A DNA stretch of 24,013 nt, taken from Rhodospirillales bacterium. GTDB taxonomy: Bacteria; Pseudomonadota; Alphaproteobacteria; Bin95. Below the pieces are notes generated by a model. That model ran no database searches. It worked only from the letters and a program-made list of their open reading frames with translations, and was not told the origin of the DNA. Positions 1 to 24,013 of this stretch are shown one piece after another (the stretch's first letter is position 1; each line of letters starts with the position of its first letter). Both the position numbers and the translations under genes were made by a program. The DNA is taken from NCBI GenBank assembly GCA_038143065.1, contig JAYQLI010000003.1, positions 1-24,013 of the forward strand, written 5' to 3'.

Positions 1-36
1 AGCAAGTTTGTGCAAAAGTTTTACGATCTGCTGTGC

Positions 37-3350: not shown

Positions 3351-4060
3351 CAGCTCTCACACGCGCTGCAGTTTTATCGGCAAAAGCTATTAACCTGTCG
3401 TTTGCTTCAGGTTGTGTATTGACCACTCCCAAAGCTTCCATATAAGATGCATCAAGAGCAGACATGTTCCGCGTATGAGAAATCGTTGAGCAGACCGAAG
3501 TTTGAAAGTGAGGGTATTTTTGCAGCAGCTTTTGCAATTTCGATTGCTCTGGTATCACTTGTTTTCGAATGGCAAAGCTCACTCAACGCTTCCTTTATAG
3601 GTGCGCCCAGTCAGCATCATTCAATCATGCACCCGGCCAATAAGCTCGGGAAACCCGAATAGTTGCCCCACCACCGGTAAACAGACCACGCTGCCCTTCG
3701 GGGCAGTTTGGTCAGCCACTCGAATATGCTAATTCAAGGCCACCGCCAACGGTCGCACCTTTCAGAGCTGCAATGACAGGTATTCCACCATATTCAATCT
3801 TGTTGAATGGAAATTCTCAGAGCGTTGCTCTTTTTGGTGTTCAATTAAATCTAGACCTGCAGAAATGCTCTCCTTCTGCTCGCAATACAACAGCCTTGAA
3901 TCCAAGATTAGGAAGTTTTGAAAATAATGAAATTATTTCCTCAATCGTTTCAATATTGAGTGCATTCCGCTTGGCTGCCCGATTGAGACTAACAATAGCG
4001 ATATTTGTGTCTGCTGACAATTATATTCCTAAACTTAGATACTGGTAGCTGCATCTGCAT
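3340..4060 (-). CDS. dmdD: Methylthioacryloyl-CoA hydratase DmdD (crotonase family); has indels and apparent multi-codon deletions, possibly a pseudogene
   Basis: Hand translation gives [78 protein letters not shown] and a C-terminus [37 protein letters not shown]. These closely match Ruegeria pomeroyi DmdD as I recall it. Confidence 0.85.
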
Positions 4061-4115
4061 ATCTGAAACTTTCCGATGAAAAATGGTTGTACTTTTGATC
4101 AAATCATTAATTGTT

Positions 4116-4789
4116 TTATTGTTTGGTAAGGTAGATCTTTGCCCAGTCGTCGAAATGGATCACGTTGCAGGGTGAATTCACGTTCTCGAGCCAGACAAAG
4201 ACCGAGATGAACGGTTGGTCATAGACCCGGGTGGCGTGGGGTCGCCAGCGGCATTCCAAATTAATGATCCAGCCGGATAATCCTGCCATTCATGAGTGCC
4301 AAACCGCCACCCCGATTTTTCGGACAGGTTCAGATAAAGCTCTGGCGCGTCGTGGTTGTGGTCGCGATACAGCGTCCGTGGACCCAGCATGAAAATGCCA
4401 AGGTTGAAATCGGGATGGTGATGTCCACATGCGTCTGGCCCAATTAGCAGAGTATGCAGGTTACACTTTGTGTATCCCTCTCCCAAATCGGCACCGGGGG
4501 GATAGAATTGGGCTTTGTCTTCGCGCCAGATCAGATCATCCTTGGCTGCTTTCAGGCAATCTGCGATATCCTGCAATTCGGGAGCGACAATCCCGGCGAT
4601 GGCGTTCTTCAGAACCTCATCGTGCCGGGTTCCTTGGGGAGGTAATCAATGAGCCTCTCGCCAAACATGATCCATGGCTGTCAGCTTGTCCAACGTCAGA
4701 TCAACGCCGCGCGTGGCAGCTCTGTGAGCCTGCAAATAGGTGACAATGGACCCGATAAGCGCCTGAATACGGCGTTGCTTGTCTGTCAT
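4116..4789 (-). CDS. DMSP-lyase-family cupin (DddL/DddQ-like), frameshifted
   Basis: Starts MTDKQRRIQALIGSIV (ATGA overlap with the ligase stop at 4786). Core LHTLLIGPD..FNLGIFMLGPRTLYRDHNHDAPELYLNLS carries cupin motif 1 (HxH-x4-E-x-Y type). Motif 2 is PAGSLIWN..PHATRV, and the protein ends ..FISVFVWLENVNSPCNVIHFDDWAKIYLTKQ*. Confidence 0.75.
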
Positions 4790-6384
4790 GATTTTAAGTC
4801 CGAGCGCGTTGAAAGGTCTTGACGCACGAGTTTCTTGTCGAGCTTGCCGACGCTGGTTTTAGGTAGGCGGTCGACAAAGATTAATTCGTCTGGAACTGCC
4901 CATTTTGAGATCTCGCCTGCGTCAACACGCGACTGGATTTCTTCCATGACGCTCAAGCGCACAAGATCCGGGTCGGCATCCTCTGATTTGAGCGACAACA
5001 CCGGCCTTTCGCCCCATTTCGCGTGCGGCAACCGATTGCTGCGACGTCCTCAACGCCGCTACAAGACGATGCTATGTTTTCCAGTGCCAGCGAGGATATC
5101 CATTCGCCGCCGGTCTTGATTACATCCTTGAGACGGTCAGTAATCTGCAACGATCCATTCTCGCGGATATACCCAACATCCCCGGTATGCAGATACCCAC
5201 CGTCCCAAAGCTCATCAGAGGCTTGCGCGTTATCCAGATAGCCTTGTGTCAACCAGGGAGCCCGCGCAACAACTTCGCCGGTTGTTTCACCGTCATGCGG
5301 AACGTCTTTCATATCCGGTGTCACAACTCGAAGGTCGACAAGAGGGCCGGAAAACCCGGTTTGCGCCTGCACCTCAGGATCGTTGCTGGACAAATCGGCC
5401 ACCGTCAGAAACGGACAGGTTTCGGACATCCCATATGCCGCATGCAAGGATATACCTGCCGTCGCGGCGCGGGTTTGCAGACTGCGCGGCAAAGCGGCCC
5501 GCCAATGATTACTTTCCATCTATGCAGGTCAGTTTGCGGGCAGTTGGGATGGTCGAGCACCATTGACAGAACCGTGGGCACGCAGTGGGAAAGGTGACAT
5601 TTTCGTCTGAAATCAATCGCAGGATTATGTCAGGGTCATATCGACCGGGATAGACCTGACGCAGCCCCAGCATCGTTGCGGCATAGGGAAATCCCCAACC
5701 GTGGACGTGAAACAAAGGTGTCAGCGGCATGTAGACGTCGCCGCGATGAAATCCGGCGTTTCGGGCCACGCACCAAAGCCGGCGATCAGGCCCAACGTGT
5801 GAAGGACCAACTGCCGATGTGAATAGCTCACCCCTTTGGGATTGCCGGTGGTCCCGGTTGTATAGAACAAGGTTGCCGTTTGGTTTTCATCGAAGTCCGG
5901 GAAGTCAAAGCTTTCTGGGGCCTCGCCTATCCACTCTTCATATCCTTCTCCGTCTCCAATCGGCACAATGATGATATCCCGATCAAAGCCCGACTTGATA
6001 TTATCAATGAACGGCATGAAATCGCGGTGCACGATAATCAGATCCGGCTGCCCATGGTTGATCGTATAAAGAACCTGCGCAGGAGATAGACGGACGTTGA
6101 TCGTGAAAAGGGTCGCACCCATCATGGGGATCGCGAAAAAACACTCAAGATAACGGTTTGTATCCCAATCCATGACACCGACGCGCATGCCCTCACGTAT
6201 CCCGCTGGCCTTTCAGAGAATGGCAAGTTGGTGCACGCGTTTGCCAAACGTCCTCGTAGCTCAATCGCAATTTGCCGCCGCTGACGATTTCTTCGCTGGC
6301 TGACGCAAGCTGGGATCTGGCCAACAAGTGTTTGATCAGCAACGGATAGCCATATGCATTTGATGAAGGTGACAATATTGGCAT
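4786..6384 (-). CDS. Fatty acid--CoA ligase, DmdB-like (methylmercaptopropionate-CoA ligase of the Pseudomonas PA4198 type), frameshifted
   Basis: N-terminal AYGYPLLIKHLL, then VMDWDTNRYLECFFAIPMMGA, the AMP-binding motif FYTTGTTGNPKGV, YGMSET, LHTGDVG, DRLKDVIKTGGEWISS and LPKTSVGKLDKK. Confidence 0.88.
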
Positions 6385-6440
6385 CTAGGTCAAATCCTTA
6401 ACAATCTTTATCTGTATCAACTCTGGCATTTCATACCCTG

Positions 6441-6482
6441 TTTTAGAATTGAAACAAATTTCTTTTCATCAAAAATTCTAAC
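6441..6482. promoter_or_regulatory. Candidate LysR binding region between the divergent ligase and LysR genes
   Basis: AT-rich intergenic stretch containing TTAGAATT (6443-6450), its inverted copy AATTCTAA (6474-6481), and a T-N11-A box within ATCAAAAATTCTAAC (6468-6482). Confidence 0.4.
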
Positions 6483-6624
6483 CAATCAATCGTACCATTA
6501 ATTGCGTTTTATCCCCTGACAGGCTACGAAAAAATTAGCAAAACCTCGCTCAAATCGCGCCCGTTGTCGGATAACTCTGCTTGAGGGTTTTTAGAGATAA
6601 AGGTTTCATCAAGGAGAGCAATCG

Positions 6625-7546
6625 ATGTCACGCATATGCCCACGCTGGTTTCACTGCGCGCTTTTGAGGCGGTGGCGCGTCACAAGAGTTTCCGAAAGGC
6701 CGCTGACGAGATTTGTGTAACGCATGCGGCAGTCAGCCACCAGGTCAAAGCATTAGAAACATCAATCGGCGTTAAACTACTGGAACGCACAAGCCGTTCG
6801 GTCGAACTGACAGTGGCTGGTGAGCAGTATTATCCGGCAGTTCGCGAACACATTCAGGGAATTATCAAAGCCACGCGGCGCATCCAGGCACCTGAGGAAC
6901 CGGACGTGTTGCTCGTTCAGTCCTACGCAAGTTTCAATACAATGTGGTTACAGCCCAGATTGGCTGAATTTCTTCAGGACAATCCGAACACACGCGTGCG
7001 CATAGTCTCTACCTTTGAAGACGGTGATTATGACATGCACCGGTTCGATGTGGGCGTGTTCAACGCGCCACCATTTGACAAACGGTTTAACTATAGCCCG
7101 TTATTCGAAACGGATATCTACCCGGTTTGCGCGCCAGAGGCTTTCAATTCCGCAAGCGGCGGAATGCCACTCGAAGAGCTTAGAAATTACTTATTGTTGA
7201 GTGTCCCAAGCACATGGAATGAGCCGGATGACTGGGACTGTTGGTTGGAGGCTGTAGGCTTAGATCGCGAACCGATGAAATTTGGCTCAATCTTCGATAA
7301 CTACCCTCTTGTCCGCGAAGCCGTTTTAAACAATCACGGTATCAGCGTCGCAAGGGCACCGTTCTGCGCGCGTGATCTTGAGCGGGGTCGCCTGGTCAAA
7401 CCGTTTGAAATTTCAGTGCCCGAGCCAGGCCGCTGGTATCTGGTGACGCAAAAGAACGTGCACCCAACCCCAAGCTCGATACATTTATCGACTGGCTTTA
7501 CGAACAAATCGAGGCCGACCCGACCATGCGGTTCTTCCGGTCCTGA
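6625..7546 (+). CDS. LysR-family transcriptional regulator, GcvA subfamily
   Basis: HTH region LRAFEAVARHKSFRKAADEICVTHAAVSHQVKALE and substrate-binding domain WLQPRLAEF..DLERGRLVKPF. A frameshift near 7470 restores the end KLDTFIDWLYEQIEADPTMRFFRS* (TGA 7544-7546). The start is at 6625 or 6636. Confidence 0.92.
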
Positions 7547-7621
7547 TCTGTTAAATCCCAACTATGCCTGTTAGCGCGTTCCGGATCACCACAGACCTTC
7601 TCGGGGTATTTTTCCAGCCAC

Positions 7622-8588
7622 TCATTTCGTGTGCATGCGCTTTTTAGTTTCGCGCACACGTTTCGTTGCCTCGCGGCTGCCGTCATGAAAGCTTCGAACC
7701 AGTTGTCCCAAGGCATTTCCGGGCCGCCATAATTACATTCGAAATACCGGTGATGCAGTTGATGGTGGAACGACCCGATCTTCAGGTGGGCCTTATCCCC
7801 AAGCACCAGGTTTTCGAAACCCGGCATGCGACGTGGCTGAACCAAGAATATCCAATGAAGAGAAAGTGGATGGGATGCGCTGGCACAACCAGGAAGATCA
7901 GCAGCAAACTTAAATAGCCGACATGCTCGATCGGATGCATGGAAAAGCCTGACCACGGTGCAATGAAACACTACGGTGATGCACAGAAACGCGCTTGTAG
8001 ATCCATGGGATGTGCAGTGCGCGGTGCAGCCAGTAGAAATGGAAGGACTGCGCAACAGGCAACAACAGGAACATGGCAAAAAACCAGATCGGATTGCTCT
8101 GGGCCGTGATCATCGGCGCCCATCCATTGGCGTAAGCCATCCAAACAATAGTATCATAGAACGTCCAGACCGTCACGCCAGATAGGAGCGCAGGTGACAT
8201 TGTCCCAATATTGATCGTTCCAGAGGAAGATGCGGGCATTCTTGGCTAATCCGCGCCGGTCGAACTTGTAATCTTCGTCCTGCTTCTTCCATCCGTAAAG
8301 CCACAGGTGCAGTCCTTGGGCAAAGAAGATCATCAGGATCAGGTTGCGCGCCCAAAGCTGCAAAACCCATGTAAGCGCTGCATCTGCTCCAAGGGTGGCA
8401 CCTTCGATGGTAGGCCATCAGCGTGTAGATTAGGTATTCAGTGAGGAGCCAGTTGGTCGCAAACCACCGGAGCGTAGCTATGGCCTTGGTGGCCATGAAA
8501 AAAGCGGCGTCACCGCTACGGGCAAATCCGGATGCCAGTTCCATTCCTTGCTGATGCCTGCTTTCAGATGCTCATCTGTGTCGGACAT
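7622..8588 (-). CDS. Sterol desaturase / fatty acid hydroxylase family membrane di-iron enzyme, frameshifted
   Basis: Starts MSDTDEHLKAGISKEWNWHPDLP. His boxes HFYWLHRALH, HHRS and FHHQLHHRYFECNYG, followed by PWDNWF. Confidence 0.85.
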
Positions 8589-8988
8589 GTGCGAAGCTCC
8601 TATTATCGGTTCATTCAGACCTTATTCATGTGAATTTCAGAGGTTGAGTGCACGCCCATTCCCTTCACGATTGGACAATTGTGATTAATAACTCTTTGTA
8701 CCGCCAGGCCCACTCTCAAAGAACTGAAAAGATTTTCAGACCATGTAAAATTAGTAACCGCCGGTGGCTGAAGTAAACCTGTCCCTATTATCGGAATGGT
8801 CCGTTTTTGAGCAGAACAGCGAGCCTCTGACGCAATTCGAGTAAAGGTCCACGCCATCCCAAAAGTTCACTAATATATCCTAATGGCGGTCTTATCGGAT
8901 TACCTTTCGCACGTGATCTTAGGCGTTCTGCTTCGACCGTCGTTGGGGAACTTCGGCGAAACGGTAGAGGCAAGGCAAATCGATCTGC

Positions 8989-10061
8989 CTAGGTCCGATC
9001 AGTGCGCGTGGGACGTCGCGTACCCGCTTCAGGTGCGACGCGAGGGACAAGAGCGCGAACCAGTTCGATCATATCCAGTGTGCCGACCGTCTGCTCCCCA
9101 TCTTTGACGACATAGGCGTGTGTCGTATCTCCACCGGACTGCGCGATCACGCTTTCAAGTGTGTCGTTCACGTCCACCTCGCCATGTGCACCATTTGGCA
9201 CTTTGTTCCCACTAACCGGGGTCATGATCGAGCGCACCCGCAGAACCCGTGCGCGGTTGATGTCGCTTACGAAGTCTTCGATGTAGGGGTCGTTGGGGTT
9301 CAGCAGGATATGCTGCGGCTCGCCCTGTTGCACGACAAAGCCGTCCTTTAGGATCACAAGATGATCGGCCAGCTTCAGCGCCTCATCGAGATCGTGAGTG
9401 ATGAAGATGATGGTCTTGTGCAGCTCTTTTGCAGCTCGAGCAGTAAATCCTGCATGTCGGTCCGGATCAGCGGATCAAGGGCCGAGAAAGCCTCGTCCAT
9501 TAGCATGATCGGTGTGTTTGCGGTCAGTGCTCGGGCAATGCCCACACGCTGTTGCATCCCACCAGACAACTGCGCTGGATAATGGTTCTCAAACGCGTTC
9601 AAACCCGCGATCCAGCCATTTCGCGGCTTCGCGGTCGCAGGTGGCCTCGTCCTCGCCACGTACCGACAGGGGCATGCCTGCGTTCTTTAGCACAGTTTTG
9701 TGCGGCAAAAGTGCGAACTTCTGGAACACCATCGACATCTTTTCCTGGCGGGCATGGCGCAGCCATCTTCCGGACAGTTGCATCACGTCTTCGCCCTGCA
9801 CGATGATCTCGCCCGCAGTGGGTTCGATCAACCGGTTCAGGTGGCGGATCAAAGTAGATTTTCCAGAACCGGAAAGGCCCATGACCACTGTGATTTCCCC
9901 AGCCTGCATATCCACATTGATGTTGTTGAGTCCCAGAACATGTTTATGCTGCGTCAGCAACTCAGCTTGCCCATACCACTCTGAACATGGCGCAAAGCGT
10001 CTTTGTCGCGGGCGCCGAAGATCTTGTATAGCCCACGAATACTGACCATTGGTTGTGTCAT
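8989..10061 (-). CDS. Glycine betaine/proline-type ABC transporter ATP-binding subunit (ProV-like)
   Basis: Walker [10 protein letters not shown], signature [15 protein letters not shown], Walker [14 protein letters not shown], and [15 protein letters not shown]. Confidence 0.92.
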
Positions 10062-10073
10062 TAAACTCGCTCC

Positions 10074-11103
10074 TCAGTGTTTAACTTGGGCCTTATCGAC
10101 CCGTGTGAGCGCTGCTTTGGACACGCGATCAAGAATTACGGCCAGCATAACGATGCCTAGACCAGCAACGATGCCTACACCCAATTCCAAGTTTCTGATA
10201 CCGCGCAGAACATTTACACCTAGACCAGGCGCCGACACCAGAGAGGCAATCACGACCATGGCAAGGCTCATCATGATGGTCTGGTTGATTCCGGCCATGA
10301 TGTTCGGTAGCGCCAGCGGCAATTGCACTCGCATAAGTTTCTGACGGTCATTCATACCAAAAGCATTTGCAGCTTCTAAAACGTCTTGGTCTACAAGGCG
10401 GATGCCAAGGATCGGTCAGACGGATTACTGGCACAATCGCGTAAAGGATAATCGCAATTCCATAAAGTTTGGACTCCGTGACCGAGAACAAGAAAATCAG
10501 AGGGATCAGGTATACAAAGGTCGGCAAGGTCTGCAGCAGATCTAGTAGCGGAACAACGCTTTTTTGCAATCGATCAGATTTCGACATGGCAATTCCAATG
10601 GGCACACCGAACAGCACCGATATCGCCGTACATACAAAGATGATTGAAAGGGTTTGCATCGCCACATCGTAGTGGTCGACGAGGGCCAATAGCATAATCG
10701 CGACCGCGACAAAGATCGTCACAGGACGCGATCGCGACGCGTACCACGAAATCGCAACCAGAAGCGGAACCATGATGAACCACGGCATCGCTTCAAACAG
10801 CCAAAGTGCGCTATCCAGCATCCAGCTTAATGGTTGTGTGATCGGGTCTAGGACATTTTTTAGGACCGGTTTGGCCGCCAGAAATCCTTCTTCTATTCCG
10901 TTGGTTACATCGCGCGACTGCCATATGCGGTTGCAGCTTTCATGAAAATTATCAAACGAAGGAATAGGAAAGAACGGCTCAGACGTCTTTTCTCCTCCTG
11001 CTTGCGCCGCAAGGTCCGCGAGCGAAAGAGGCGCATTGTCATCTGACGTGCCACACCAGTCGCTCAAACCCAATGCGCTGAATAACTTGTCATAGAAGGC
11101 CAT
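10074..11103 (-). CDS. Glycine betaine/proline-type ABC transporter permease (ProW-like)
   Basis: Motifs PLLDLLQTLPTFVYLIP, PVIRLTD and VQLPLALPNIMAGINQTIMMSLAMVVIASLV. Frameshift near 10410. Confidence 0.92.
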
Positions 11104-11133
11104 ATAACGCTTTCCGATCTACTTCAGTGCGTT

Positions 11134-11157
11134 AGGGGCATCGCTTAGGATGCCCCT
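11134..11157. terminator. Intergenic stem-loop between the binding-protein and permease genes (mRNA stabiliser or partial terminator)
   Basis: Perfect 9-bp stem AGGGGCATC-gcttag-GATGCCCCT. Confidence 0.6.
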
Positions 11158-11171
11158 GTCCATGCAGTTTA

Positions 11172-12141
11172 CTACAGCAATGCGGAAAGTTTATCTCGCG
11201 CAGCATCGTTAAGCCACGCCCCCACACATCCTTATAGGTTGTTAAGAAATGCACCGCGCCCTCGTCGTAGGAAGCATCGTTATCTTCAACCCATGCCAGT
11301 GTTTCACTCATTTGAGAGTTTGTGAAGGGACAGGTTTGTCATGAGCGAACTGATCGCTTGGTTTCTGCCATAAATTCTTTAAAGACCGTCACAACCAAAC
11401 TACGAGGGAACCCACTCATGGCAGGCGTCTCGCATTCCGCAGTACTGTTGCAGGCCCATACCTCTGCTTTTGTGCTCACCCATTTCGACCAAAGTCATCG
11501 GATACTTACCTAGTACAGATGTCGGTCCCCAGTAAAAAGCCAAACCACGGTTCCTTGTTTCTCGTAGGCCGAAGCGATCGAGGCCGCAAGAGTTTCGCCG
11601 GAACCATGCACAAAGTTTTCAACACCAACGTCAATTAGTCCGCCTGCCTTGAGCAAATTGGTGCTGACGTTCAGGCACGTCCATCCCTCTGGACAGTTGT
11701 GAAAGCGGTTCCCGACAAGCTTGGGATTAGCTGTAATACCTTCTAGTGTTGCTAGTTCTGGGTGTTTCTCGACAAGGTAGTTTGGAACAAAAAATCCTTC
11801 CACACCACCATCTGACAAAACTTCTGTCACAGGAATAATTGCGCCAGATTCAACTAAACCTTCGTATGCTGGGGCACCATTTGTCCAGATTTCTGTTAAA
11901 AAATATCAGGCTCTCCAGTCTCGGATACAGATGCCAGGGCAGGGTTAGATGAAAGCGGCACTGTGGTAACTTCACATCCGTAACCTTCCTCCATGAGGAA
12001 CTTGGCAACCGCAGTAACGATTTGTGCAGATCCCCAATCACCTTGCATAATTGATACTTCACCGCATTCGTTTGCCTGGGCCGCTGAGGCGGTGATTGCC
12101 GCGGCAAATACACACCCGAGTCCCGTTGAAATCTTAAACAT
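11172..12141 (-). CDS. Betaine-type ABC transporter substrate-binding protein (ProX family), frameshifted
   Basis: Signal peptide followed by ECGEVSI..DWGSAQIVTAVAKFLMEEGYGC, GGVEGFFVPNYL, FHNCPEGWTC and HGSGETLAASIASAY; ends WLNDAARDKLSALL*. Confidence 0.9.
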
Positions 12142-12281
12142 TTCTTTCCTCCTTGTAATTGACGAAGTAAGACCGAAGAAAAGCTCCGAGCCATCGTTCG
12201 CCTTGTTTGTAAAAAAATTCTAGTGACAAGCCGATGAGCAAAAAACTGAAAAGAATTTAAGTTTTATGAATCTTGAACACT

Positions 12282-12298
12282 TTAGAAAAACTATCTAA
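12282..12298. promoter_or_regulatory. Dyad upstream of the ABC operon, candidate regulator site
   Basis: TTAGA-aaaacta-TCTAA. The TTAGA half-site resembles those at 6443-6481. Confidence 0.35.
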
Positions 12299-12394
12299 TT
12301 CACTTTCAAAGTCTTCGGGAGTGTTTTTTACGGAATTTTGTTCTCCAGTGGCAACACGGTAACACTTGCATATCATCGCATACAGTTTAGCACT

Positions 12395-12476
12395 GTCACA
12401 CACCCGTCACACAGACATTGACGAAACGGGTATTTTCATGAGATCTTACACTCATAAAGTTGAAACATGGTGTGAC
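12395..12476. repeat. Candidate integrase arm-type repeats next to the tRNA-Met att core
   Basis: GTCACACA direct repeats at 12395-12402 and 12406-12413, with an inverted GTGTGAC at 12470-12476. Confidence 0.45.
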
Positions 12477-12508
12477 ACTAGAAAACTGAGAGATTTGTTT
12501 GAAAACAA

Positions 12509-12556
12509 TGGCAGCGGAGGAGGGACTCGAACCCCCGACACGCGGATTATGATCCG
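12509..12556 (-). other. 3' half of tRNA-Met(CAT), an integrase attachment-site remnant rather than an intact tRNA
   Basis: The reverse complement is CGGATCATAATCCGCGTGTCGGGGGTTCGAGTCCCTCCTCCGCTGCCA: anticodon loop with CAT, T-arm GGGGG-TTCGAGT-CCCTC, and a CCA end. There is no D-arm or 5' acceptor strand upstream. Confidence 0.85.
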
Positions 12557-12734
12557 TTATTCCAAACAAAATTATCCTTTACACCTCCACCAACCATCAA
12601 GCCCGAGGTCAAGTGCAACATCCGGCCCAATCTAGACCCCACCCCTCTAATCAAGTCCAAAGCTGACAGCGAAACGGCTCCAGTAACCCCGGCGCTCCGA
12701 GGTTAGGTTCCAGTCGCGAACTCTTGAAACTTCC

Positions 12735-12756
12735 TGTAGACAAGGTTGTAGACAAG
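12735..12756 (+). repeat. Integrase arm-type tandem repeat TGTAGACAAG x2 (12-bp period)
   Basis: Copies at 12735-12744 and 12747-12756, about 90 bp from att core A. The same motif and period occur at 14079-14099 on the minus strand. Confidence 0.65.
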
Positions 12757-12847
12757 CTTTGTGCTTTAATTGCCAGAAATAATCTAATAAACTGGCTGAA
12801 TAGTGGGAGTTTTTAGACTTGAACTTCCTCGCACAGGCATCGAACTT

Positions 12848-12896
12848 GCCCCCGGGCACCACTTCTTCATAAAAAGAGCCGAGGTTCGAGGTTCAA
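12848..12896 (+). repeat. att core A (tRNA-Phe 3'-end-like GCCCCCGGGCACCA) plus flank; left arm of a ~50-bp inverted repeat
   Basis: GCCCCCGGGCACCACTTCTTCATAAAAAGAGCCGAGGTTCGAGGTTCAA is the reverse complement of 14141-14190, apart from one homopolymer G. Confidence 0.9.
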
Positions 12897-12934
12897 GTCT
12901 CTGAATTATGGAATCTTCGTTCTCTGAACTTAGT

Positions 12935-14091
12935 TTATCCCTCCAGCATCTTCATCCACCGATACTTAACGGCCAGATCATAACCACTTCCATATTTATG
13001 GCCTATGCCAGCAGTTGTCCAACCGCCGATGGCGTCAATGATGTCTGGAAGGGCATTCAACTGCCCTTAACCTGTCTCTCAGACTATGCCTAAAGCTATG
13101 GATAACGCAGCCCTCTGGTATCCTTGGTTTAAGCCACTTGTTCAAAGCAGCGCTGGCAGAGTTGGCATTGCACTTGGTCTCGTCGCAGTATCTGGCAAAA
13201 GCATATTTATGACCGACATCGACAATCCTTATTGCCGCTTCATACGCGCTCCCCACTAATGGAATATCTCTTTCACTAGAAGCCGTTTTCAATGACCGCC
13301 ACGGGTGCTTGCGGAGTGTTATGTGGGGCACATCTGTATCCAGTTGAATGTCTTTAAAGCTCAGGGAGGACCGCAGCTTCTGACAATCTCATGCCAGTAT
13401 CACTTATGATTGCGATTAGCCAACGCTGAGGGTCATCAACCTGAGAGCACTCATGCAGATGGATAACCGGATGGCATCCAGTGGTACGGGCAACCGCCAC
13501 TAGCTGCATTATCCTCTGGAATGAATATCCCTGAGAAGGGATTGGGGTTGGCTATGCCAAGCTCCTTAGAGGCTAGGTTATAGATAGCCTTAACAGAGGA
13601 CAGAACACGCCTAATCGAGGTTGATGCCAAACCCTTAGCAATGAGATAGTCCCTGAACTGACCAGCATTGACGGTTTTGATTGATGATAAATCAACATCA
13701 CCGACACACTCTATTAGGTAGCCGACATTGCGCGTTGATGTTTTTGAATAGGCACGATCCGTCCTGCACCCTTGAGCCTGGATGTAAAGTTCCCAGAGCA
13801 TCGCTGATATTCGTGTCCGCACTATCTAATGGTGCATCTGGAGCACCGCCAAACTTCAGGCCAAGCTCTTGTGAATGAAACCGTTCCAGCCTGAGTGACT
13901 CAAAATATCTCTCAAGCCTATCGGATAGTGCGAAAGCTGCTTTCTGCGCTTTAACCTCTGACCGTGTTTGCAAAGACACAACCACACGGTTCTTATTAAA
14001 CCGCGCCTTTAAATCGGAAGGCACATTGCGTGTGAAGTAATAGATGCCATTACGGCGGTATAGATAATCTGGCGACCCTTGTATACACCAT
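12935..14091 (-). CDS. Tyrosine recombinase/integrase with DUF6538-like N-terminal arm-binding domain, frameshifted
   Basis: N-terminus MVYTRSPDYLYRRNGIYYFTRNVPSDL, then ANPNPFSG. Catalytic residues in DTGMRLSEA (R), LKTASSERDIPL (K), HSFRHSLRDRLR (HxxR), IGGW and HKYGSGY (Y). Stop TAA at 12935-12937. Confidence 0.92.
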
Positions 14092-14140
14092 TGTCTACAG
14101 CCCCTGTCGTTCCTCAAACGTTAATTAAAGGAATTAGAGA

Positions 14141-14190
14141 TTGAACCTCGAACCTCGGCTCTTTTTATGAAGAAGTGGTGCCCGGGGGGC
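14141..14190 (-). repeat. att core B (tRNA-Phe 3' end) plus flank; right arm of the ~50-bp inverted repeat
   Basis: TTGAACCTCGAACCTCGGCTCTTTTTATGAAGAAGTGGTGCCCGGGGGGC. Confidence 0.9.
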
Positions 14191-14602
14191 GGACTAATTG
14201 CCTTTGTACAGCACCAATGCACATCTCACTGTTTGTACTTTCAATAGGGTTACGTATTGGTTAGTCACTGTCACAGGCACGAAGCGTGTACATCAGTTTG
14301 TACATCAGTACGGGTGGGCATGATCCACCCCCTTGCCACACGTATATATACATAGACAATTACACAGATCAGTCTCTGACACTGTTAACCACTATCAGTT
14401 GTCATTTGGCGTAATTCAATGAATCACTAAAATGCCCATAAACGTGTTTAGGCAAAGCTGGTGCCTAAATACGAGTGATAGTATTTGTGATCTTTTAAAT
14501 GGGTGTGATAGAATGACAGAAATGACAAAGAAAATGGAAAGTCATGAGAAGAGTTGGCAGAGGTTTGGTGGATTTAGCTGTCATTCCTGTCATTTGTGTC
14601 AT
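14173..14602 (-). repeat. ~430-bp element-end repeat, copy 1 (att core, arm repeats, hairpins, iteron array)
   Basis: Colinear reverse complement of 22095-22529. Contains TGTACATCAGT x2 (14287, 14299), GGGTGG-N7-CCACCC, TTTAGGCA-N7-TGCCTAAA (14447-14469) and ATGACA/TGTCAT iterons (14513-14602). Confidence 0.95.
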
Positions 14603-14749
14603 ATTTTGTTTTTACGTATAGCGCCTTCTACCTGTTTGCGAAACCTATTTAGCATTACCGTTGGCACTTCAAAATTACATTGAAGTTTTAGAGTGCTCTT
14701 TGACATTTCTAATACTTGTAGAGTTAAACTTTCTGTTTAGGATTAACTT

Positions 14750-15116
14750 ATTTTTTTTGTTCATGTTTTTTATTTCATTGGTTGGCCGTAAAATTACTTC
14801 TTCTAACCCCCACTTCGTATCCAGTTGATTGAAGCGCAATTTAGTATTCTTCAATCGCTAATAAATAAAATTTTTGTCCCGTATCGCAAAGTTGAATAAA
14901 GGTTGCTGTTCGCCGCCTTTACATGAAAGGACTCTAGTTCTTGGTTCTTGAAGTTGGAGATCCAATAGACCATCGGACAAATCCAAATGACATTCATGTC
15001 CCGCATGACAATCATACCAAAAAGACGGTGGGTAAAATTTCAACTCAGCCATCGAGGCAGTTGGTGAGTTCACAAGTAGCAAAATTGTCAGAATTTTTGA
15101 TCACAGTTATTCGCAT
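14750..15116 (-). CDS. Hypothetical exported protein, frameshifted (3' end uncertain)
   Basis: Signal-peptide-like start MRITVIKILTILLLVNSPTASMAELKFYPPSFW; overlaps ORF 14858..15082. Confidence 0.4.
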
Positions 15117-15399
15117 TTTGTTGGCCCAAAAATACTTAGTGGAATAGACACCGCTGACAAAAAACCAAGAACACAGGTATCAAAAAATCTGCTCTAACAT
15201 TGCATCTATTGGTAATTGACTTCTTTAATCCAGCCTCTGCCATCCCATACATAACCAAAATCTTGTTTAACTAAATCATAGAAGTCTTTCTGGTGTCTTT
15301 GGCATCACCATAAACGACAATCCAAGTATTTTCAATTTTTTCAAGAAGATCTTTATCTTCATTTTTCATTTGCAACTATCAACCTTTCCACTTTTGAAG

Positions 15400-16664
<1,265 letters not shown>

Positions 16665-17049
16665 GTTTCAAACCCCAAAGGATATGGCCTTTGTTGCAGT
16701 GGCCCAGCCCCTCATATCTTAGACAACCTTTTGGCGTAAAACATTGTCATTCTTGAAATTGGGGGGGATGTGAGTAATTCTGGCCTTCAAGAAAATATTA
16801 TAAATGCCCTGAGCCAGTTAACGATAGGGTCACGCCAATATTCATCCACGGTTTCGCAACCTCATCATGCCACTCTTGTTTATAGATTTCACCGAACCGG
16901 TGTCAGCATTTGCGGATATAACCTAGTGACCAAAAAAGCGCCAATTACCAATCTGACCAACTAGGCCCCATATTTTAATTTTGATTTCTCATAAACTCCC
17001 AACCTAGTTAAGTCAACGGCTATTTTGTTGTGATATTTTCCGCTTCACA

Positions 17050-17508
17050 AATTTCCAGGAAATCGTTTTTGACTGAAAAATAACATTCCTTTTTCGTAAT
17101 GATAAGTCATGTAATCTTTTGTCTGCGCGATATTTTTTCCATTTCTTTTGATTATTTTTTTAAATTCGTTAAACGCGCAATCTCTGACTTTTTGTCAGGT
17201 AAAAAATTGGATTTTGTGGATTTCCAGATCATACGAAAAGAAAGCGGCATGAGCACCTCACGTATCAAGGCTTGTATTTTCAACCGCCGTTTCCATTACT
17301 TCTTCAGGTCCATCACCTTTTTGTCTTCGCAGCTGCTATCAAACCATCTGCTATTGTTTGAAGTTCCGTCCTCCACAACCAACGCCGATGCCACCAACTT
17401 TTCATGTTTATTCATTTTCGTAATCACTAGCGATAGTTTGTGGTACGCCATCCCAATACTGATAATCTTGATTAAATCTATCTGCCCACCTCTGAAATTA
17501 GTGTTCAT
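17050..17508 (-). CDS. Hypothetical protein, frameshifted, co-oriented downstream of the ADP-ribosylglycohydrolase
   Basis: ATG about 12 bp after the upstream stop. Fragments read MNTNFRGGQIDL.., WRTELQTIADGLIAAAKTK and AFNEFKKIIKRNGK. No recognisable motif; boundaries approximate. Confidence 0.35.
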
Positions 17509-17519
17509 GTTTCGCAACC

Positions 17520-18713
17520 TCAAAAATACCAATTCGTGTCGTATCTGCCGATATCATCCAAAGCCAAGTGCATAGACGGTTTTGAGGCATCAAGCGGATC
17601 AAATATGATCGCCGATTTTTCCTCAATTATGCGAATACACTTTCCCCGGATATATCCATCCATGCGTCCAGCAAGGGTTAGTTGAGCCGAATGGCCCTCC
17701 GGCCCATAATGTTGCTGCTCCACCGCCGTAACTAGCAAGTGGGTGAATGCATAGACAACTGTGACCTGCTACCTCATAGGTTTTTCCTGCCTCTGGGCCT
17801 TGTATATCCAGAAGAGTTTCGCTTACCCTCTGCAACTCTTCCCTTAAGGTCGTCTTGTTTGCGACCTGCAAAAGCCCAATGGTGTATTCTCTGATTTGTC
17901 TACCCCACTGAAGACCTTCAATCATCCAATTCGGAATAGCATCAAAGCCGTAGATGGCTCCAGCAATCATCCCCACAACAGCACCTGTAGTATCACTATC
18001 ATGCCCACGATTGATGGCTTCAATGATGCAATCTTAAAAGTTGGTAGTGGTTTGAAACGCCCACCACGCAGCTTGGTATGTTTCTTTAACATATCCGCCA
18101 GACATCACTTCATTACGGGCAACAGTGTTTGGGTGTTTGTATCCGCTGTTCTTTTTCAGAGGTTTGCGCAGCCACAATTCTTCGGCAAGTAGTTTGCTGT
18201 ACAGAAGCGCTTCATCGGCTCCATGTGTAAGTCTTGTGGACTCTTCTGCCCACTTTATGGCCTCTGAAAAACACCCTGCTCAATAACAGCTGGTGCCAGT
18301 CGCATCAAACCACCATTGCCTGCACTCATTGGGTCGGTCTTACCCGTGTAGGGGTTTGACCCATCAGCCTCGTATGCAGCCAACGCACTGTATACTGTGT
18401 TGCCACAATCAAACATAATTCCACGGGGTGAATACGCGCCCTCATTTTTCCATTTGAGGAAATTGCCCATGATGGTGTGTGGGTCATAGGTTTTCTTTGT
18501 GGTGATGGCATCAGCCATAGCCAACGCCATTGAGGTGTCATCCGTAAATTCGCCCTTTGATACGTTATGCGCACCACCAGTCATGTATGACCGTATATAA
18601 TCTTCAGGTTCACGTGATGGCTGAAACTCAATCGGCGCACCCATAGCATCACCAATGGCAAGACCAAACATCATGCCTAATGCCCAATTTTCTTGGTGGG
18701 TCAAATCAGACAT
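17520..18713 (-). CDS. ADP-ribosylglycohydrolase (DraG/ARH family) with C-terminal extension, frameshifted
   Basis: Motifs GLAIGDAMGAP, FTDDTSMA, SAGNGGLMRLAP, TRLTH, SGGYV and GHDSDTTGAVVGMIAGAIYG (metal-binding TDDT and DSDT). The reading continues about 100 aa past the fold, to 17623 or, with one frameshift, 17520. Confidence 0.9.
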
Positions 18714-19385
18714 TGGACACGCCAAAAAGTTTTGGTTCGGGTGATATAATTTTGCAGGGCGGTGGGTCCCCGTCTTAACATCACCTGTTTCTTCGACTAG
18801 GCCAACGCCGTCATACTTCTCCACCCATTGCCTGAAATTGCGCTTGTTATGAGGGGCATATTTATCGCCCGCCAAAGCAGCAAACGTTTGCTGTAGTTCT
18901 GTCAAAGTGAAGTCACCTTCGTGGAAAGCAAACACAAGATTTGGCTTACTTTCCACGAGGTAACCAACCAAGAGATGTGCATCTTTGCAAATTTGATTGT
19001 GATCAAATGCAAGCTGCGGTGTTCCCGATATGGGGAACCACTTTACGTCTGATACATCTGTATCAGCACGAAGCTGTAATTCATCAGAAGGCTGAATAGC
19101 CATATAGGCTACAGAGATAGTTTGTTGGCGATGGTCCCTTTGAGGATCGCTATAGTTCTTGAAATGCTCGATGTAGGGAGCAGCAACGCCTGTTTCTTCT
19201 TTGAGTTCTCGCAAGGCACATTCATCAAGGCTTTCTCCCTGCTGTAAAAAGCCTCCCGGCAAAGCCCACAAACCATCGTCTTTACGTTTAACGCAAAGGA
19301 TGTGGAGTTCACCCTGTCGAAGGGTAAATAGAACCACATCAGTTGCTACCGATGGATGCCAGAAATCTGATTCAAAATATGCCAT
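18706..19385 (-). CDS. nrtR: NrtR-family regulator (Nudix + winged HTH); in frame with the downstream hydrolase as sequenced
   Basis: PSVATDVVLF, WALPGGF, Nudix box GESLDECALRELKEETG, SDPQRD, LAFDHNQI, and wHTH motifs FTLTELQ, KRNFR and HRPAKLY. Confidence 0.88.
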
Positions 19386-19401
19386 TACGAACTGCCTTAG
19401 T

Positions 19402-19447
19402 TAGTATGTTTTTTATACTATGCATATTTAGTATAAAATCAATACTA
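19402..19447. promoter_or_regulatory. Tandem palindromic operator TAGTAT-N7-ATACTA x2
   Basis: TAGTAT-gtttttt-ATACTA (19402-19420) and TAGTAT-aaaatca-ATACTA (19429-19447), starting 17 bp upstream of the nrtR ATG. Confidence 0.75.
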
Positions 19448-19568
19448 TCATGTCAACAGCTTTTTTGATTTTTTACAATGGCAACTGACAGTTTATCAGT
19501 TACCACTTAACTTGTTGTATAACATATACTTTTATCTTGACTTTGTGCATATCGATCCATAGTAAAAT

Positions 19569-21108
19569 ATGAACAAATGGGCGGTATGCCCAGCGACTTG
19601 CCACAACTTTTGAGTTCAGGTACGGACTGCCTCGCAGCCCACAGCGGCTTGCATTATTGGCTCGTATGGTTGGAGAAATCCAAATCATGACAATAGAAGA
19701 CGACCAAGTCTCAACAGACGTTGAGCAAGCGCATAATGGCGACATAGTCGATATGCGTCTAATAAGACGACCAGAGAATGTGACAGACAATTGGCACTTG
19801 CTGACATTTTTGCCTTTCAGCGGGCAGTTCTTGGGCAGTGTTCTCATCAACTTTGTCCTGATAAGCACTGGTATTTGTGGAATGGTGAAAGGTGGCAGAA
19901 GGACAAACAAAACCCAGATGCTCCTGCGTTCTGCGGAGTTTGTTCGGGAAATAGCCAAGCTAGCTGTTGACTGTGACGAACCTGATATAGCCAGACGATT
20001 TTAGGTTCAGCAAAACCTGATCTGCTCAAAGGCTGAGAACCTGAAAAACTAGCTAAGCCAGTCTGATTAGGTATCATCTCACTGACTTTGATGCTCATCC
20101 AATGCAGCTATGCGTTGAGAATGGTGTCATTGATCTAGCGACTGGTAAGCTACTGGACCCAGAACCATCAATGCATCACAGCAAGATGGCTGGTGTAGCT
20201 TATGATGCCATGCCATTGTTCGCTTCATGCAGTTCCTCAAGGACATCTTTCCTGATGACCCAGAACTGCTGGAATATGGCCAGTGCAAAAGGTAGCTGGC
20301 TATGCACTGACAGGAAGCACGAGGGAGCAATGCTTGTTCATGCTACTTGGAGGTGGCGCCAATGGTAAGTCAACTTTGGTTAGTCTGCTGACGAAGCTGA
20401 TGGGTGACTATGCTGCCAATACAGCAGCCAACACCTTGATGGCTAGCAACAGCAATCAGGTGGGTGATGATCTGATCAGACTGGCTGGTGCTAGGCTTAT
20501 CACCGCAGCAGAGACTGAGCATGGTCAGCGTTTTGCTGAAGCTAAAATCAAGTCCTTTACTGGCGGTGATATGATCAGCGCCAGACCACTCTATGGTGAG
20601 TGGGTAGACTTCAAAGCCTGTCGGCAAGATACTGCTTACCACCAACAACCGGCCTGAGATACGTGGGTCAGATGATGGTATCTGGAGGCGTATTCGGGAG
20701 ATACCATTCAACAGGCAATTCACAGAGGCAGAGCAGGACAAGGAGTTGATGACAACATTGACCCAAGAACTGCCCGGTATCCTGAATTGGGCGATTGAAG
20801 GCTGTCTGCTTTGGCAAGCCAATGGACTGTCTGCTCCAGCATCGGTGATGGCTAGCGTTTCTGAATATCGCAGCGAGATGGATACAGTCTGCTCGTTCAT
20901 CGTGGATGAATGCATCGTTGCTGCACATGAACGCATTCCAGTTGGGAACCTCTACGAACAATATGTCAGTTGGTGTAGATCTTCTGGCAAGCACCCTCTT
21001 AGCAAGGTGCAGTTTGGTAAGGCACTGACCAGTCAAGGCTATGCGGAGCAAATCCGTGGCAGTAATGGACGCTACTGGCGAGGTTTGTCCATTAGCATCA
21101 CTGGCTAA
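19569..21108 (+). CDS. P4-family/D5-like primase-helicase (D5 N-terminal + SF3 helicase + wHTH), frameshifted; start could be 19569, 19666 or 19687
   Basis: D5_N motifs HWYLWNGERWQKD and DFDAHPMQLCVENGVIDLATGKL. Walker A GGGANGKST, then LAGARLITAAE, IKSFTGGDMISARPLY, TNNRPEIRGSDDGIWRRI, ELPGILNWAIEG and LYEQYVSWC. Confidence 0.88.
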
Positions 21109-21216
21109 CAAAACGATAAAGGCGGGGCGAGAAATTGCTCGCTTTCACATACAGGTTTCGGTTGTGTTTTCGTCAAAATGAAATGACCATCCTATCCTCA
21201 TAATTTCAGAGCAAAA

Positions 21217-22063
21217 ATGACAAAACCTATTGCTACAATGTTAGTCCCGTGGGCTTCAATGATGAGTTTTGTTGGTGTGCTGATGAGGCTGCTCGATGAA
21301 GCTACTGGTTTTCAAATTCTTTTTTATCGATCAATCAGCCTTACATTGATTGTGTTGCTGGTCGTCTGCATTCGACGCAGAACCATCCCTTCATTTTTCA
21401 TCAAATCAATTGATAAGCATGACCTGCTGATGGGAGGCCCCCTTGCAGTAGCCTTCACCGATACATTTTTTCCATGCTCTGGAGTTGATTTGCATCAACC
21501 CTATTAATCATCACTATTGCACCGTTTCTTGCTGCAGTAATTGCTTGGAAGTGGATTGAACTCGTCCCTGTTACATTTCAAGTGATTGTCGCAACCTTTG
21601 GCGTGGGCTTAATGGTGTAAGATGGTGCTAACCAGGTTAAAAACTTGGTAATATCAGTGCGTTTATGGATAAAATTGTCTTTGTGATTTTTTAGTCCAAG
21701 AAACGCGTAAAATCGAAAAACATTGTGTTAGGTTGGAAAATAAGCTGGCGTGTTCAAGTCCAAACTTGGAGCAATGACGGCACTTGTTTTTGATGGGAGC
21801 CTTGCAATCAGCCAATCAGATGTTTTGACTATATTGTTTATGGGTGCCTTTACCATTGGCCTTTTTTCTTTTAGTAACAACTGGAACCGGCTTTCCATCC
21901 CTGCTGCAGAGGTAAGTTTACTAGTACTGATTGAAAGCCCATTGTTGGGGATTATTTTGGGTGTTAAAAGGTGAACCAGTTACCATTTATGAAATATCTG
22001 GTGGAGTAATTACATTTTAGCTTTAGACAAAAAAATTGGGTTTATAGTCGCAATCCTCGAGTA
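21217..22063 (+). CDS. DMT/EamA-family transporter, heavily disrupted (possible pseudogene)
   Basis: Fragments SFVGVLMRLLDEATGFQILFYRS, APFLAAVIAW, LFMGAFTIGL and IPAAEVSLLVLIES. The end is approximate. Confidence 0.7.
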
Positions 22064-22094
22064 AATGCCCTCATCTAATGAGATCCTTCCCCCA

Positions 22095-22529
22095 ATGACA
22101 CAAATGACAGGAATGACAGCTAATCCATAAACCTCTGCCAACTCTCCTCACATACGACTTTCCATTTTCTTTGTCATTTCTGTCATTCCTGTCACACACC
22201 CATTTAAAAAGATCACAAATACTATCACTCGTATTTAGGCACCGGCTTTGCCTAAACACGTTTATGGGCATTTTAGTGATTCATTGAATTGCACTTAAAT
22301 GGCAACTGATAGTGGTTAACAGTGTCAGAGACTGATCTGTGTAATTGTCTATGTATATATACGTGTGGCAGGGGGTGGATCATGCCCACCCGTACTGATG
22401 TACAAACTGATGTACACATCGTGCCTGTTGACAGTGACTAACCAATACGTAACCTATTGAAAGTACAAACAGTGAGATGTGCATTAAGTGCTGTACAAAA
22501 GGCAATTAGTCCGCCCCCGGGCACCACTT
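22095..22529 (+). repeat. ~430-bp element-end repeat, copy 2, ending in att core C (AGTCCGCCCCCGGGCACCA, tRNA-Phe 3' end, 22508-22526)
   Basis: Inverted copy of 14173-14602. Iterons ATGACA at 22095, 22104 and 22113, and TGTCAY at 22172, 22181 and 22190. ACTGATGTACA x2 at 22394 and 22406. Confidence 0.95.
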
Positions 22530-22607
22530 TCCTTGTTTCACATTACCTATCTCACTGTTTGTAAACGATTGATGTGTTTGCAGGTGGTGAGTGAGGTGAG
22601 TCAGCGC

Positions 22608-23017
22608 ATGTTCAAATGGGTAGCTGCATTTGTACTATCTTTCGCTTTCCCTCAGTTGGAATCCCATGGATGCTTTATTTGCTCCACACGAGCAAACAAG
22701 AAGCCCGTCAACATCAACTAAGTAGCGGTTACCGAACCCTTGGTTCAGAAAAACCTGGAGACTTCTCTTCGCAAGAGGAATTCAAGAAGGAAATAAATAA
22801 GCAAGTGGATAATCTTGAGGGTTATTGGCGTCAGGGACATCTCTCTAAGGTTAGCGACTTTGACCCCAGTTTTGTTCCTTTAGATGGAATAAACTGGAGC
22901 AGGAAAATCTACACAAATAAATGTCAAAAGGTTGGAAGAAATCCCATACCTGAACTTTTAGAAGATTTTGACCACAATGAAACTGTCGCATCTGAGGCAT
23001 TGGACTCCAAGTGTTGA
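22608..23017 (+). CDS. Hypothetical exported protein, frameshifted
   Basis: Signal-like start MFKWVAAFVLSFAFPQL after a GAGG-containing upstream region, continuing into ORF 22616..23017. It may extend further. Confidence 0.4.
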
Positions 23018-23704
23018 TTTACTCTCAGGCATTATGAGTAAAACAAAAGATAGTATAATTAAGAGATTAAAATTAGTGAGGACCGTTTGAGCATTTTAAA
23101 AGATTATAATCACGACTTAGCCTCGTCCGAAAATCAAATGGTTAATGTGCATTGTGAAAACAGAGTTTGGAAAATTAGCATCGTTAAATCATTGCAATTA
23201 TTGCATGGTGACAAAAGAAGGTTGCTAACTGCGAGAGGTTACAAGAGAGTCCTGAAACTTCTTTCAGTTTATCATTCAGCAATACTTCAAGAGTAGACGG
23301 TGAAGAGAAGTGAATTTTCTGGAAAACTTGGCAGAGTTTTGATAAATCTTTGCGTGAATTTATAGTTAAATTTTAATTTGATTTACCTTGGTCTGCTATA
23401 TATAGTTTTGCTTTCCTCAGTAGCTACATAGCTATGAACAGAATTCCAAATGTTGATTGGTTTTTTCAATTGGAACTTCTATCGCTATCAATGATTGGCT
23501 TTGGGATGTTAATCGTCGGTTGCTTACAACGTCTCTATGCTTTGGAACTGTCAAATTGATTTTACTATCCAAAGCGGTAAGGCCAAGGGTAAGACTTAAG
23601 CTAGTTGTCTGCGGTGTGACTTTCCCTATCTTAATGCTTGGCTTCGATGCTGTTTCTCATGCTGCTCGTTGCCTTATCTAAATAAAAACTATTGGTTTCA
23701 TGAA

Positions 23705-24013
23705 TCAAACATACTGGTAATGCTGAAGCTTATCACTATACCCCTCACCCACTTTGCCTGAAGACCACCCCCCAATTTGGTCAATCATATCTGATGGACA
23801 ATTTACTGCACGAAGCCTGTCACGCATAGAATGTCGAAATGAGTGGATGACATAGTCTGGTCCTGCTACCTGCTTCAGCCATTTGTTTAGAGCAGCACTA
23901 GCAGAGTTAGAATGCACTCCTTTTCATCACAATATCTAGGAAATAAGAAGGGGCTATTACTGGCTGCATAAGCCTGTCTAGCTGCCCAGAGTGACACACC
24001 AACCAATGGAACC
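23705..24013 (-). CDS. Second tyrosine integrase (C-terminal part; runs off the window), homolog of 12935..14091
   Basis: NSASAALNKWLK..VIHSFRHSMRDRLRAVNCPSDMIDQIGGWSSGKVGEGY, preceded by PLVGVSLWAA. Confidence 0.9.

Follow-up and report, generated by a model that had tools for sequence, protein, structure and literature searches.

The stretch of DNA analysed here (the window) is an entire 24,013-bp contig, labelled C3, from the assembly of a Rhodospirillales bacterium that comprises 4.63 Mb in 52 contigs, one of them of 2.86 Mb. Our subject is a cassette of genes at 14173-22529 that is bounded by long inverted repeats (the arms), together with the integrase genes that flank it. The sequences 14173-14602 and 22095-22529 are inverted copies of one another, 93% identical over 442-444 aligned columns. 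At the outer end of each lies a 17-bp core, GCCCCCGGGCACCACTT, which is the 3′ end of a variant of tRNA-Phe(GAA); it is found at 14173-14190 on the minus strand and at 22513-22529 on the plus strand, and a third copy is present at 12848-12864. ARAGORN found no tRNA in the window, the cores being partial tRNA-Phe ends. Longer tRNA-Phe-like copies are located on other small contigs of the assembly, and many partial copies are dispersed over those contigs.

The left arm (armL, 14190-14602, plus strand) and the right arm (armR, 22095-22512, minus strand) both contain a tandem TGTACATCAGT repeat, a GGGTGG/CCACCC hairpin, a TATATATA tract and phased ATGACA/TGTCAT hexamers. The inner ~300 bp of the arm (~14310-14602 in armL) forms a module that has 71-94% identity across relatives and contains invariant blocks. 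An invariant 23-mer of the module is present in five SAR116 single-cell contigs, 31 metagenome contigs and contig C22 of this assembly; it also occurs in one Tenericutes metagenome-assembled genome, where no alignment extends beyond the 23-mer, and is absent from IMG/VR. A search with the arm DNA gave no match in 36 other genomes of the family. When the alignments of the module were viewed by eye, the hairpin TTTAGGCA/TGCCTAAA was seen to vary on one side with no compensation. A 15-mer, ATCTCACTGTTTGTA, has three copies in the window, i.e. one in each arm and one at 22549-22563 that makes the arrangement symmetric about the right-hand core; three matches were reached in 0 of 100 shuffles. The segment armR|core|22530 onwards is therefore a site with matching arms on both sides.

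The quality of the contig bears upon the comparison of the arms. Every gene of C3 is broken by frameshifts, including the housekeeping genes (thiolase, FadB-like, acyl-CoA ligase and OpuA-type transporter), and comparison with independent short-read contigs from other samples gives differences of 0.6-3.8%, mainly gaps. These contigs correct single-base indels in the core and in the integrase gene Int1 and its adjoining spacer D1 (described below), and have one G fewer in the run of G at 14184, within the core at 14173-14190. In a search of sequencing runs the top runs contained just 0.15-0.26 of the sampled words. Over its 444 columns, the alignment of the two arms has 7 substitutions, and its 17 gap events account for 23 columns. 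Because C3 is error-rich and the short-read contigs differ from it mostly by gaps, much or all of the 7% difference could be sequencing error. An earlier note on this DNA had stated that the ends differ by substitutions and are diverged copies; the small number of substitutions in so error-rich a contig does not support this, and in a closed genome with the same layout (G259, below) the arms are 100% identical.

The genes between the arms diverge outward from ~19.45 kb. On the right, a superfamily 3 (SF3) helicase of the P4 family (19573-21105, plus strand, in four frameshift pieces, with matches to PF08706, PF19263, PF03288 and TIGR01613) points at armR. A primase domain was not found in it; the N-terminal 143 amino acids are matchless, and the PHROG primase/helicase matches are confined to profile positions ~400-770. 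It is followed by a membrane protein in fragments (21187-21971, plus strand) that is weakly EamA/DMT-like (EamA E-value 0.014; the score of 16 bits is below the cut-off of 28). In one metagenome contig 21118 is joined to 22090, so that the membrane gene is skipped and the end of the helicase lies directly on the module. On the left are an NrtR-like repressor (Nudix plus winged helix) fused to an ADP-ribosylglycohydrolase (17626-19400, minus strand, frameshifted) and an HtrA/trypsin-like serine protease (15881-16597, minus strand, frameshifted). The fusion gene places an ADP-ribose-responsive repressor of NrtR type and an ADP-ribosylglycohydrolase in a single frame, with the protease as the next gene; a near-identical fragment of it adjoins a module in metagenome contig L126. 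Among 34 open reading frame (ORF) fragments of the window, the PHROG scan returned only primase/helicase, Nudix, ADP-ribosylglycohydrolase and protease families, a lone 'portal' row being a match to the Nudix domain. Family and PHROG scans found no integrase, capsid or terminase gene inside the cassette.

Much of what the earlier note reported is borne out by this description: the two inverted ends of ~430 bp with an att core at each; the tandem repeat, hairpin, tract and iteron-like hexamers; the outward direction of the genes; the lack of an integrase or capsid gene; and, overall, a two-ended body bounded by inverted repeats. Its list of cargo holds for the helicase, NrtR, the glycohydrolase and the protease, while the DMT transporter is a match below the cut-off. 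The term satellite-like is not upheld, since no packaging or interference genes were found in the PHROG scan.

The helicase gene points at the inner end of the module in five of the seven loci that hold both. The phased ATGACA hexamers and the position of the helicase gene next to the module suggest that the arms may contain an origin recognised by the helicase, a reasonable supposition by analogy with P4. G259 has long arms yet no helicase, and therefore the arms are not only an origin.

The cassette is flanked by two integrase genes. Immediately to the left of the core at 14173-14190 is a unit on the minus strand (12848-14172) comprising a spacer D1 (14132-14172), the gene for Int1 (12975-14120, in 3-4 frameshift pieces, with matches to DUF6538 and Phage_int_SAM), a second copy of the spacer D1′ (12865-12907) and its own inverted core (12848-12864). 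Int1 is thereby bracketed by a 59-bp inverted repeat of 96.6% identity that consists of the core and a 45-bp spacer D. Adjoining this unit at 12590-12847 (plus strand) is an arm of a different kind (A-type), which is homologous to both of the arms that flank the integrase of C36, the closest paralogue of Int1; we read it as the arm of a spare phage-type attachment site (attP) belonging to Int1 itself. On the other side of the cassette, a spacer (22530-23704, plus strand) separates the right-hand core from Int2 (23705-24013, minus strand), the C-terminal part of a tyrosine integrase of DUF6538 type that is cut by the end of the contig. Int2 was recognised from an HSFRHS...RDRL motif in its translation and a tblastn match to the family integrase. 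The start of the spacer (~22530-22600), which contains the 15-mer at 22549-22563, is read as D2′, an inverted copy of the integrase-proximal arm. Spacers of similar size are found in L110 (1.1 kb) and G137 (1.3 kb).

An ORF of 133 amino acids with no family match (22616-23017) lies in the spacer and runs toward Int2. Loci in which such a spacer lies between the integrase gene and the inverted D copy each have an ORF that begins within this copy or immediately past it and is directed at the integrase gene (L110:4523-5056, L004:5667-6374, L094:158-1522 and window 22616-23017); the products are a DUF2938 protein, a SOUL haem-binding protein, and unknown proteins of 454 and 133 amino acids. The duplicated spacer may serve as a promoter for a passenger gene.

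Inverted repeats around the integrase gene are not peculiar to this window. They are present at 7 of the 13 integrase loci of this assembly (57-149 bp, 85-97% identical), at 3 of 15 loci from other genomes of the family, where many loci are cut by contig ends, and at 3 of 29 DUF6538 loci in a sample of the class. For the close subfamily, five of nine places outside this genome have the repeat, and two of the four that lack it are cut by contig ends. In IMG/VR, an alignment search gave nine integrase loci, one with a repeat, and a search with a single integrase gave no match. In relatives from other genomes the repeats are often 100% identical, and they are found beside tRNA-SeC, -Phe, -Gly, -Ser and -Leu genes. 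Wherever a tRNA gene is present (15 of 15 loci) the 5′ end of the integrase gene is directed toward the 3′ end of the tRNA. The R, K, HxxR and Y columns of the integrase alignment are invariant, which we take to be the catalytic signature of the tyrosine recombinases, and the intact relatives in G259, L084 and L110 match PF00589.

In one of these, L084 (IMG/VR), an integrase of the same DUF6538 family at 9933-11273 is surrounded by a perfect 84-bp repeat, and is located between the tail/lysis end of a P2-like prophage and a type I restriction-modification island.

The arrangement of these parts is clearest in three relatives. One is metagenome contig L110, which is colinear with 22082-24012 of the window; identity is 91.5% for the module, 100% for the core and, in amino acids, 62% for the integrase. 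It contains, in order, a module (1-244), cargo, an inverted module (4070-4431), core plus D′ (4486-4573), a 1.1-kb spacer, the integrase gene (5706-6872, minus strand), D plus core (6829-6916) and a complete tRNA-Phe gene (6901-6976). Its 88-bp repeat is 100% identical, and the modules are 3.8 kb apart. The 91.5% identity of armR is to L110 4060-4431, and the core at 22513-22529 is identical to both L110 cores. In the closed genome G259, at a tRNA-Ser gene, three copies of a 20-bp core alternate in orientation; the integrase is enclosed by a 160-bp repeat and the 4.3 kb of cargo by inverted arms of 705 bp, both pairs being 100% identical. The three sites are tRNA|core|D, i.e. attL; arm|core|D in inverted orientation, i.e. 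a complete attP; and arm|core|flank, i.e. attR. Contig C5 of the present assembly has the same triple at a partial tRNA-Phe, with inverted arms of 953 bp that include a 3′ fragment of the helicase. The third, inverted core that carries the arm of attR together with the spacer of attL is thus complete in G259, C5 and L110, and the pattern is partly present beside five other tRNA species. In the window, armR|core matches armL|core, and the unit of Int1 has D1 and D1′. The layout of three sites (attL, inverted attP and attR) and its recurrence, including in a closed genome, are established.

The earlier note had asked whether inverted pairs recur with variable cargo, and they do, in L110, L112, L133, C5 and G259. 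The cargo adjoining the module varies widely between loci. Clean inverted pairs of modules with other cargo were found at three of 31 metagenome loci (L110, L112 and L133), most of the loci being shorter than 4 kb, and there are direct pairs of modules in L106, L123 and L008. L112:722-1627 consists of two facing inverted modules with ~340 bp between their inner ends, and is thus a nearly cargo-free cassette.

These comparisons lead to an interpretation of the window. It is probable (we put it at about 0.72) that the cassette is the body of one integrative element in a tandem array at a tRNA-Phe site, the 430-bp ends being the arms of its spare attP and its attR. Taken in the sense of the tRNA, the element would begin with tRNA-Phe, core and D2 (all off the contig) and continue through Int2, the spacer of ~1.2 kb, the inverted spare attP (D2′, the core at 22513-22529 and armR), and the helicase and other cargo, to end with armL and the core at 14173-14190 as attR. 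Directly past attR there would be the next element, of the same design, with D1, Int1, D1′, inverted core and A-type arm, and the core at 14173-14190, lying in the tRNA sense, would be the attR of one element and the attL of the next at once. Int1 would belong to this neighbouring element of the array and not to the cassette. The cassette would instead belong with Int2, the window running against the sense of the tRNA; this has the same probability, on the grounds of the orientation rule, the 15-mer, the homology of 12590-12847 and the colinearity with L110. The earlier note had suggested mobilisation in trans by the flanking integrases. This is wrong in part: Int1 is probably the gene of a neighbour, but Int2 appears to be the element's own, given that the colinear region of L110 runs on to tRNA-Phe.

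Our first parse was different, taking the element to be 12848-22529 with Int1. In this case an element of 9.7 kb would have direct 17-bp cores at its ends and Int1 as its own integrase, in flipped orientation, with A|core|D1 as attL, armL|core|D1′ as the spare attP and armR|core|22530 onwards as attR. It implies that integration made use of the attP copy lying downstream of the integrase gene, or that the segment with the integrase was flipped afterwards. All three sites would be on the contig and would fit the attL/attP/attR pattern, a junction of the arm|core|D1|Int1 kind occurs again in L007, and the modules of L004, L006, L115 and L122 are situated 5′ of the integrases. But both Int1 and Int2 would then be opposite in orientation to all 15 tRNA-adjacent loci, and L110 places an arm of module type with an Int2-like integrase and tRNA-Phe on that side. 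In addition, the 15-mer at 22549-22563 becomes a coincidence, as does the homology of region A to the arms around the integrase of C36, the closest paralogue of Int1. We demoted this parse on the orientation rule, the 15-mer ATCTCACTGTTTGTA and L110, and now regard it as unlikely.

The earlier note also proposed a head-to-head fusion of two sibling elements, each having lost its integrase end. The divergence of the genes from ~19.45 kb and the attR-like character of both outer ends are what would be expected of such a fusion. Yet single small elements next to intact tRNA genes have the layout of inverted arms as a conserved design, among them that of the closed genome G259 with its identical arms and 4.3 kb of cargo, and in L112 just 0.34 kb separates the arms. 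If the fusion were accidental, it would not be found repeatedly, with arms of unrelated sequence and at different tRNA targets; we consider this origin very improbable. The chance that the structure is an artefact, i.e. a long read that is chimeric or folded back, or a misjoin at a repeat, is slighter still. The contig is short and error-rich, and comes from a fragmented long-read assembly, but a fold-back predicts a full palindrome rather than unique cargo between arms of 430 bp. Moreover, the layout is seen again in Illumina single-cell and metagenome contigs and in the closed genome, and short-read contigs from three other studies span the cargo and the boundaries of the arms.

A number of observations weigh against the assignment of the cassette to a single element with Int2, or limit it. 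The N-terminus of Int2, the D2 spacer, the core of attL and tRNA-Phe would be expected past base 24013, and the boundaries of the window copy are drawn from L110. D2′ has its partner beyond the end of the contig, so that D2 and D2′ cannot be compared here. The attR at 14173-14190 is on the contig while attL and the tRNA are off it, so bounding by direct repeats is seen in the relatives, namely L110 (where attR is cut by the start of the contig), G259 and C5. The junction armL|core|D1|Int1 is also conserved, at ~71%, in the SAR116 single-cell contig L007, which fits the alternative with Int1 as the cognate integrase. No repeats were found for G428:C7, G243 or the integrase beside the C35 tRNA-Phe, and in C38 the inverted copy comprises core and D only (122 bp), with no arm. 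The Logan contigs contained no circle, empty site or second orientation of the window copy. One joint in these, 22249 to 12845 (X1 and X3), has its short side wholly inside the core+D repeat; it is hence ambiguous and gives no evidence of a circle or a flip. Two further Logan joints, 22310 to 14383 and 13088 to 23877, are between repeated or paralogous parts. A promoter scan gave no support for a switch. Finally, C3 is error-rich and both integrases and all the cargo genes are apparently frameshifted, so the activity of the window copy cannot be judged.

How might such an element function? Insertion at the 3′ end of the tRNA would be performed by the DUF6538 tyrosine integrase. Excision by recombination between attL and attR would generate a circle containing two long inverted repeats, with the integrase gene between them and a crossover core in each; the topology of this predicted circle is that of the yeast 2-micron plasmid. 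The spare site would permit the cargo segment or the integrase segment to be inverted, whether by the integrase or through homologous recombination, and this would keep the repeats identical; such is our best guess, held with low confidence. It is plausible that the cassette is invertible. The helicase lies beside the proximal arm in C3, C5, G257 and G032, and in L110 only its C-terminal winged-helix part is left, as a remnant adjoining the distal module. This exchange of position is the pattern expected of inversion of a segment bounded by repeats, though short of proof. The constant orientation of the integrase argues that the integrase segment rarely, if ever, stays flipped.

Two other ideas were rejected. 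One was an on/off switch of the integrase by a promoter in the arm; the scan found no promoter-like site directed from the arms to the core, the counts of matches being at the level of chance. The second was that an overlap symmetric about the palindromic CCCGGG of the core permits joining in either sense, and in this case all three cores are intact and asymmetric, and not hybrid. A more far-reaching proposal is that the inverted spare attP is a functional design and the excised form a bacterial counterpart of the 2-micron plasmid. Recombination between inverted sites beside an origin recognised by the helicase would then flip one replication fork, so that one initiation would suffice to amplify the circle; another possibility is that the spare site, in single-stranded DNA, would act as a splint that unites attL and attR. 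We regard this as a speculative and doubtful suggestion.

Some features of the surrounding DNA may be recorded. The region to the left of the elements (window 1-12200) contains genes for a thiolase, a FadB-like hydratase/dehydrogenase, a cupin with a dimethylsulfoniopropionate (DMSP)-lyase domain, an acyl-CoA ligase, LysR and an OpuA-type betaine transporter, all with frameshifts. These genes may be either cargo of the Int1 element or the chromosomal flank. C22 is colinear with window 46-7518 (72-90% identity), after which it has its own integrase remnant and module. At 12499-12553 (minus strand) there is a 3′ fragment of tRNA-Met(CAT), 92-95% identical to the tRNA-Met genes of C33 and C12, which probably marks an older integration site in the same island. 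No Rfam family reached its gathering score in the window, and a permissive scan of 12200-14700 gave rows at the level of chance only. A PADLOC scan gave two weak domain-level rows and nothing else.

The tRNA-Phe gene of the main chromosome (G000 C35:2571672-2572017) has a different acceptor stem and the core GCCCCTGGGCACCA, with a DUF6538 integrase directly after it, and the core variant of the window is confined to small contigs of the assembly. This assembly has 18 DUF6538 matches; the 36 relatives have 0-4 apiece. Perhaps the small contigs represent variant islands within a population, or perhaps the bin contains a second organism.

Genomic islands at tRNA genes are a major driver of gene flux in marine bacteria, and the family of elements described here brings metabolic and regulatory cargo to SAR116 and other Alphaproteobacteria. 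The layout departs from the textbook picture of attL...attR in that an intact, inverted attP is retained inside the integrated element. Software for finding islands that expects only direct repeats would misplace the boundaries of such islands, or split them.

Several known systems share parts of this organization. Satellite phage P4 and islands of the P4-like and PICI (phage-inducible chromosomal island) type have a tRNA-targeting tyrosine integrase, a P4-family helicase domain (TIGR01613) and iterons next to the replication gene. The present element has these in common with them, but neither a primase domain nor genes for capsid size, packaging or helper interference were found in it; we know of no second inverted attP in P4. 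The C segment of P1, the G segment of Mu and the shufflons switch between alternative coding ends, and their sites are not att sites. They too have a unique segment between inverted repeats, with crossover sites at its ends and a recombinase gene beside it; here the sites are att sites, and there are no split or alternative ORFs at the boundaries. The yeast 2-micron plasmid (FLP/FRT) has inverted repeats with crossover sites. The predicted excised circle would likewise contain two long identical inverted repeats, each with a crossover site for a tyrosine recombinase, and these would separate two unique parts of the circle, a short one that contains the recombinase gene and a long one. Unlike the plasmid, the present element is integrative and bacterial, and has att sites derived from a tRNA; a replication gene is missing from some relatives (G259), and the circle and its topology are predicted.

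Literature listings and abstracts outside the subscription journals (covering tycheposons, DUF6538, integrases with inverted repeats and tRNA, attP/FLP, and SAR116 islands) contained no description of the layout, and for DUF6538 no papers were found. The three-site layout with a tyrosine integrase, recurring in many marine bacteria, appears to be undescribed.

The closest likeness is to the tycheposons, the cargo-carrying, tRNA-targeting integrative elements of Prochlorococcus (bioRxiv 10.1101/2020.12.28.424599). So far as the available part of that preprint goes, the two share a marine host, a tyrosine integrase by a tRNA, partial tRNA repeats, a small replication module with a helicase and variable metabolic cargo, as well as tandem arrays in genomic islands and the lack of capsid or conjugation genes (10.1101/2020.12.28.424599). 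The present host, by contrast, belongs to the Alphaproteobacteria and the present integrase to the DUF6538 type, and the same part of the preprint makes no mention of an internal inverted attachment site or of repeats around the integrase (10.1101/2020.12.28.424599). An integration module, a replication module and cargo, flanked by full or partial tRNA within islands, are thus common to both, to the extent that the same source describes them, as a likeness of working and not of membership. The element works like a cargo-carrying tycheposon, or like a P4-like island without packaging genes.

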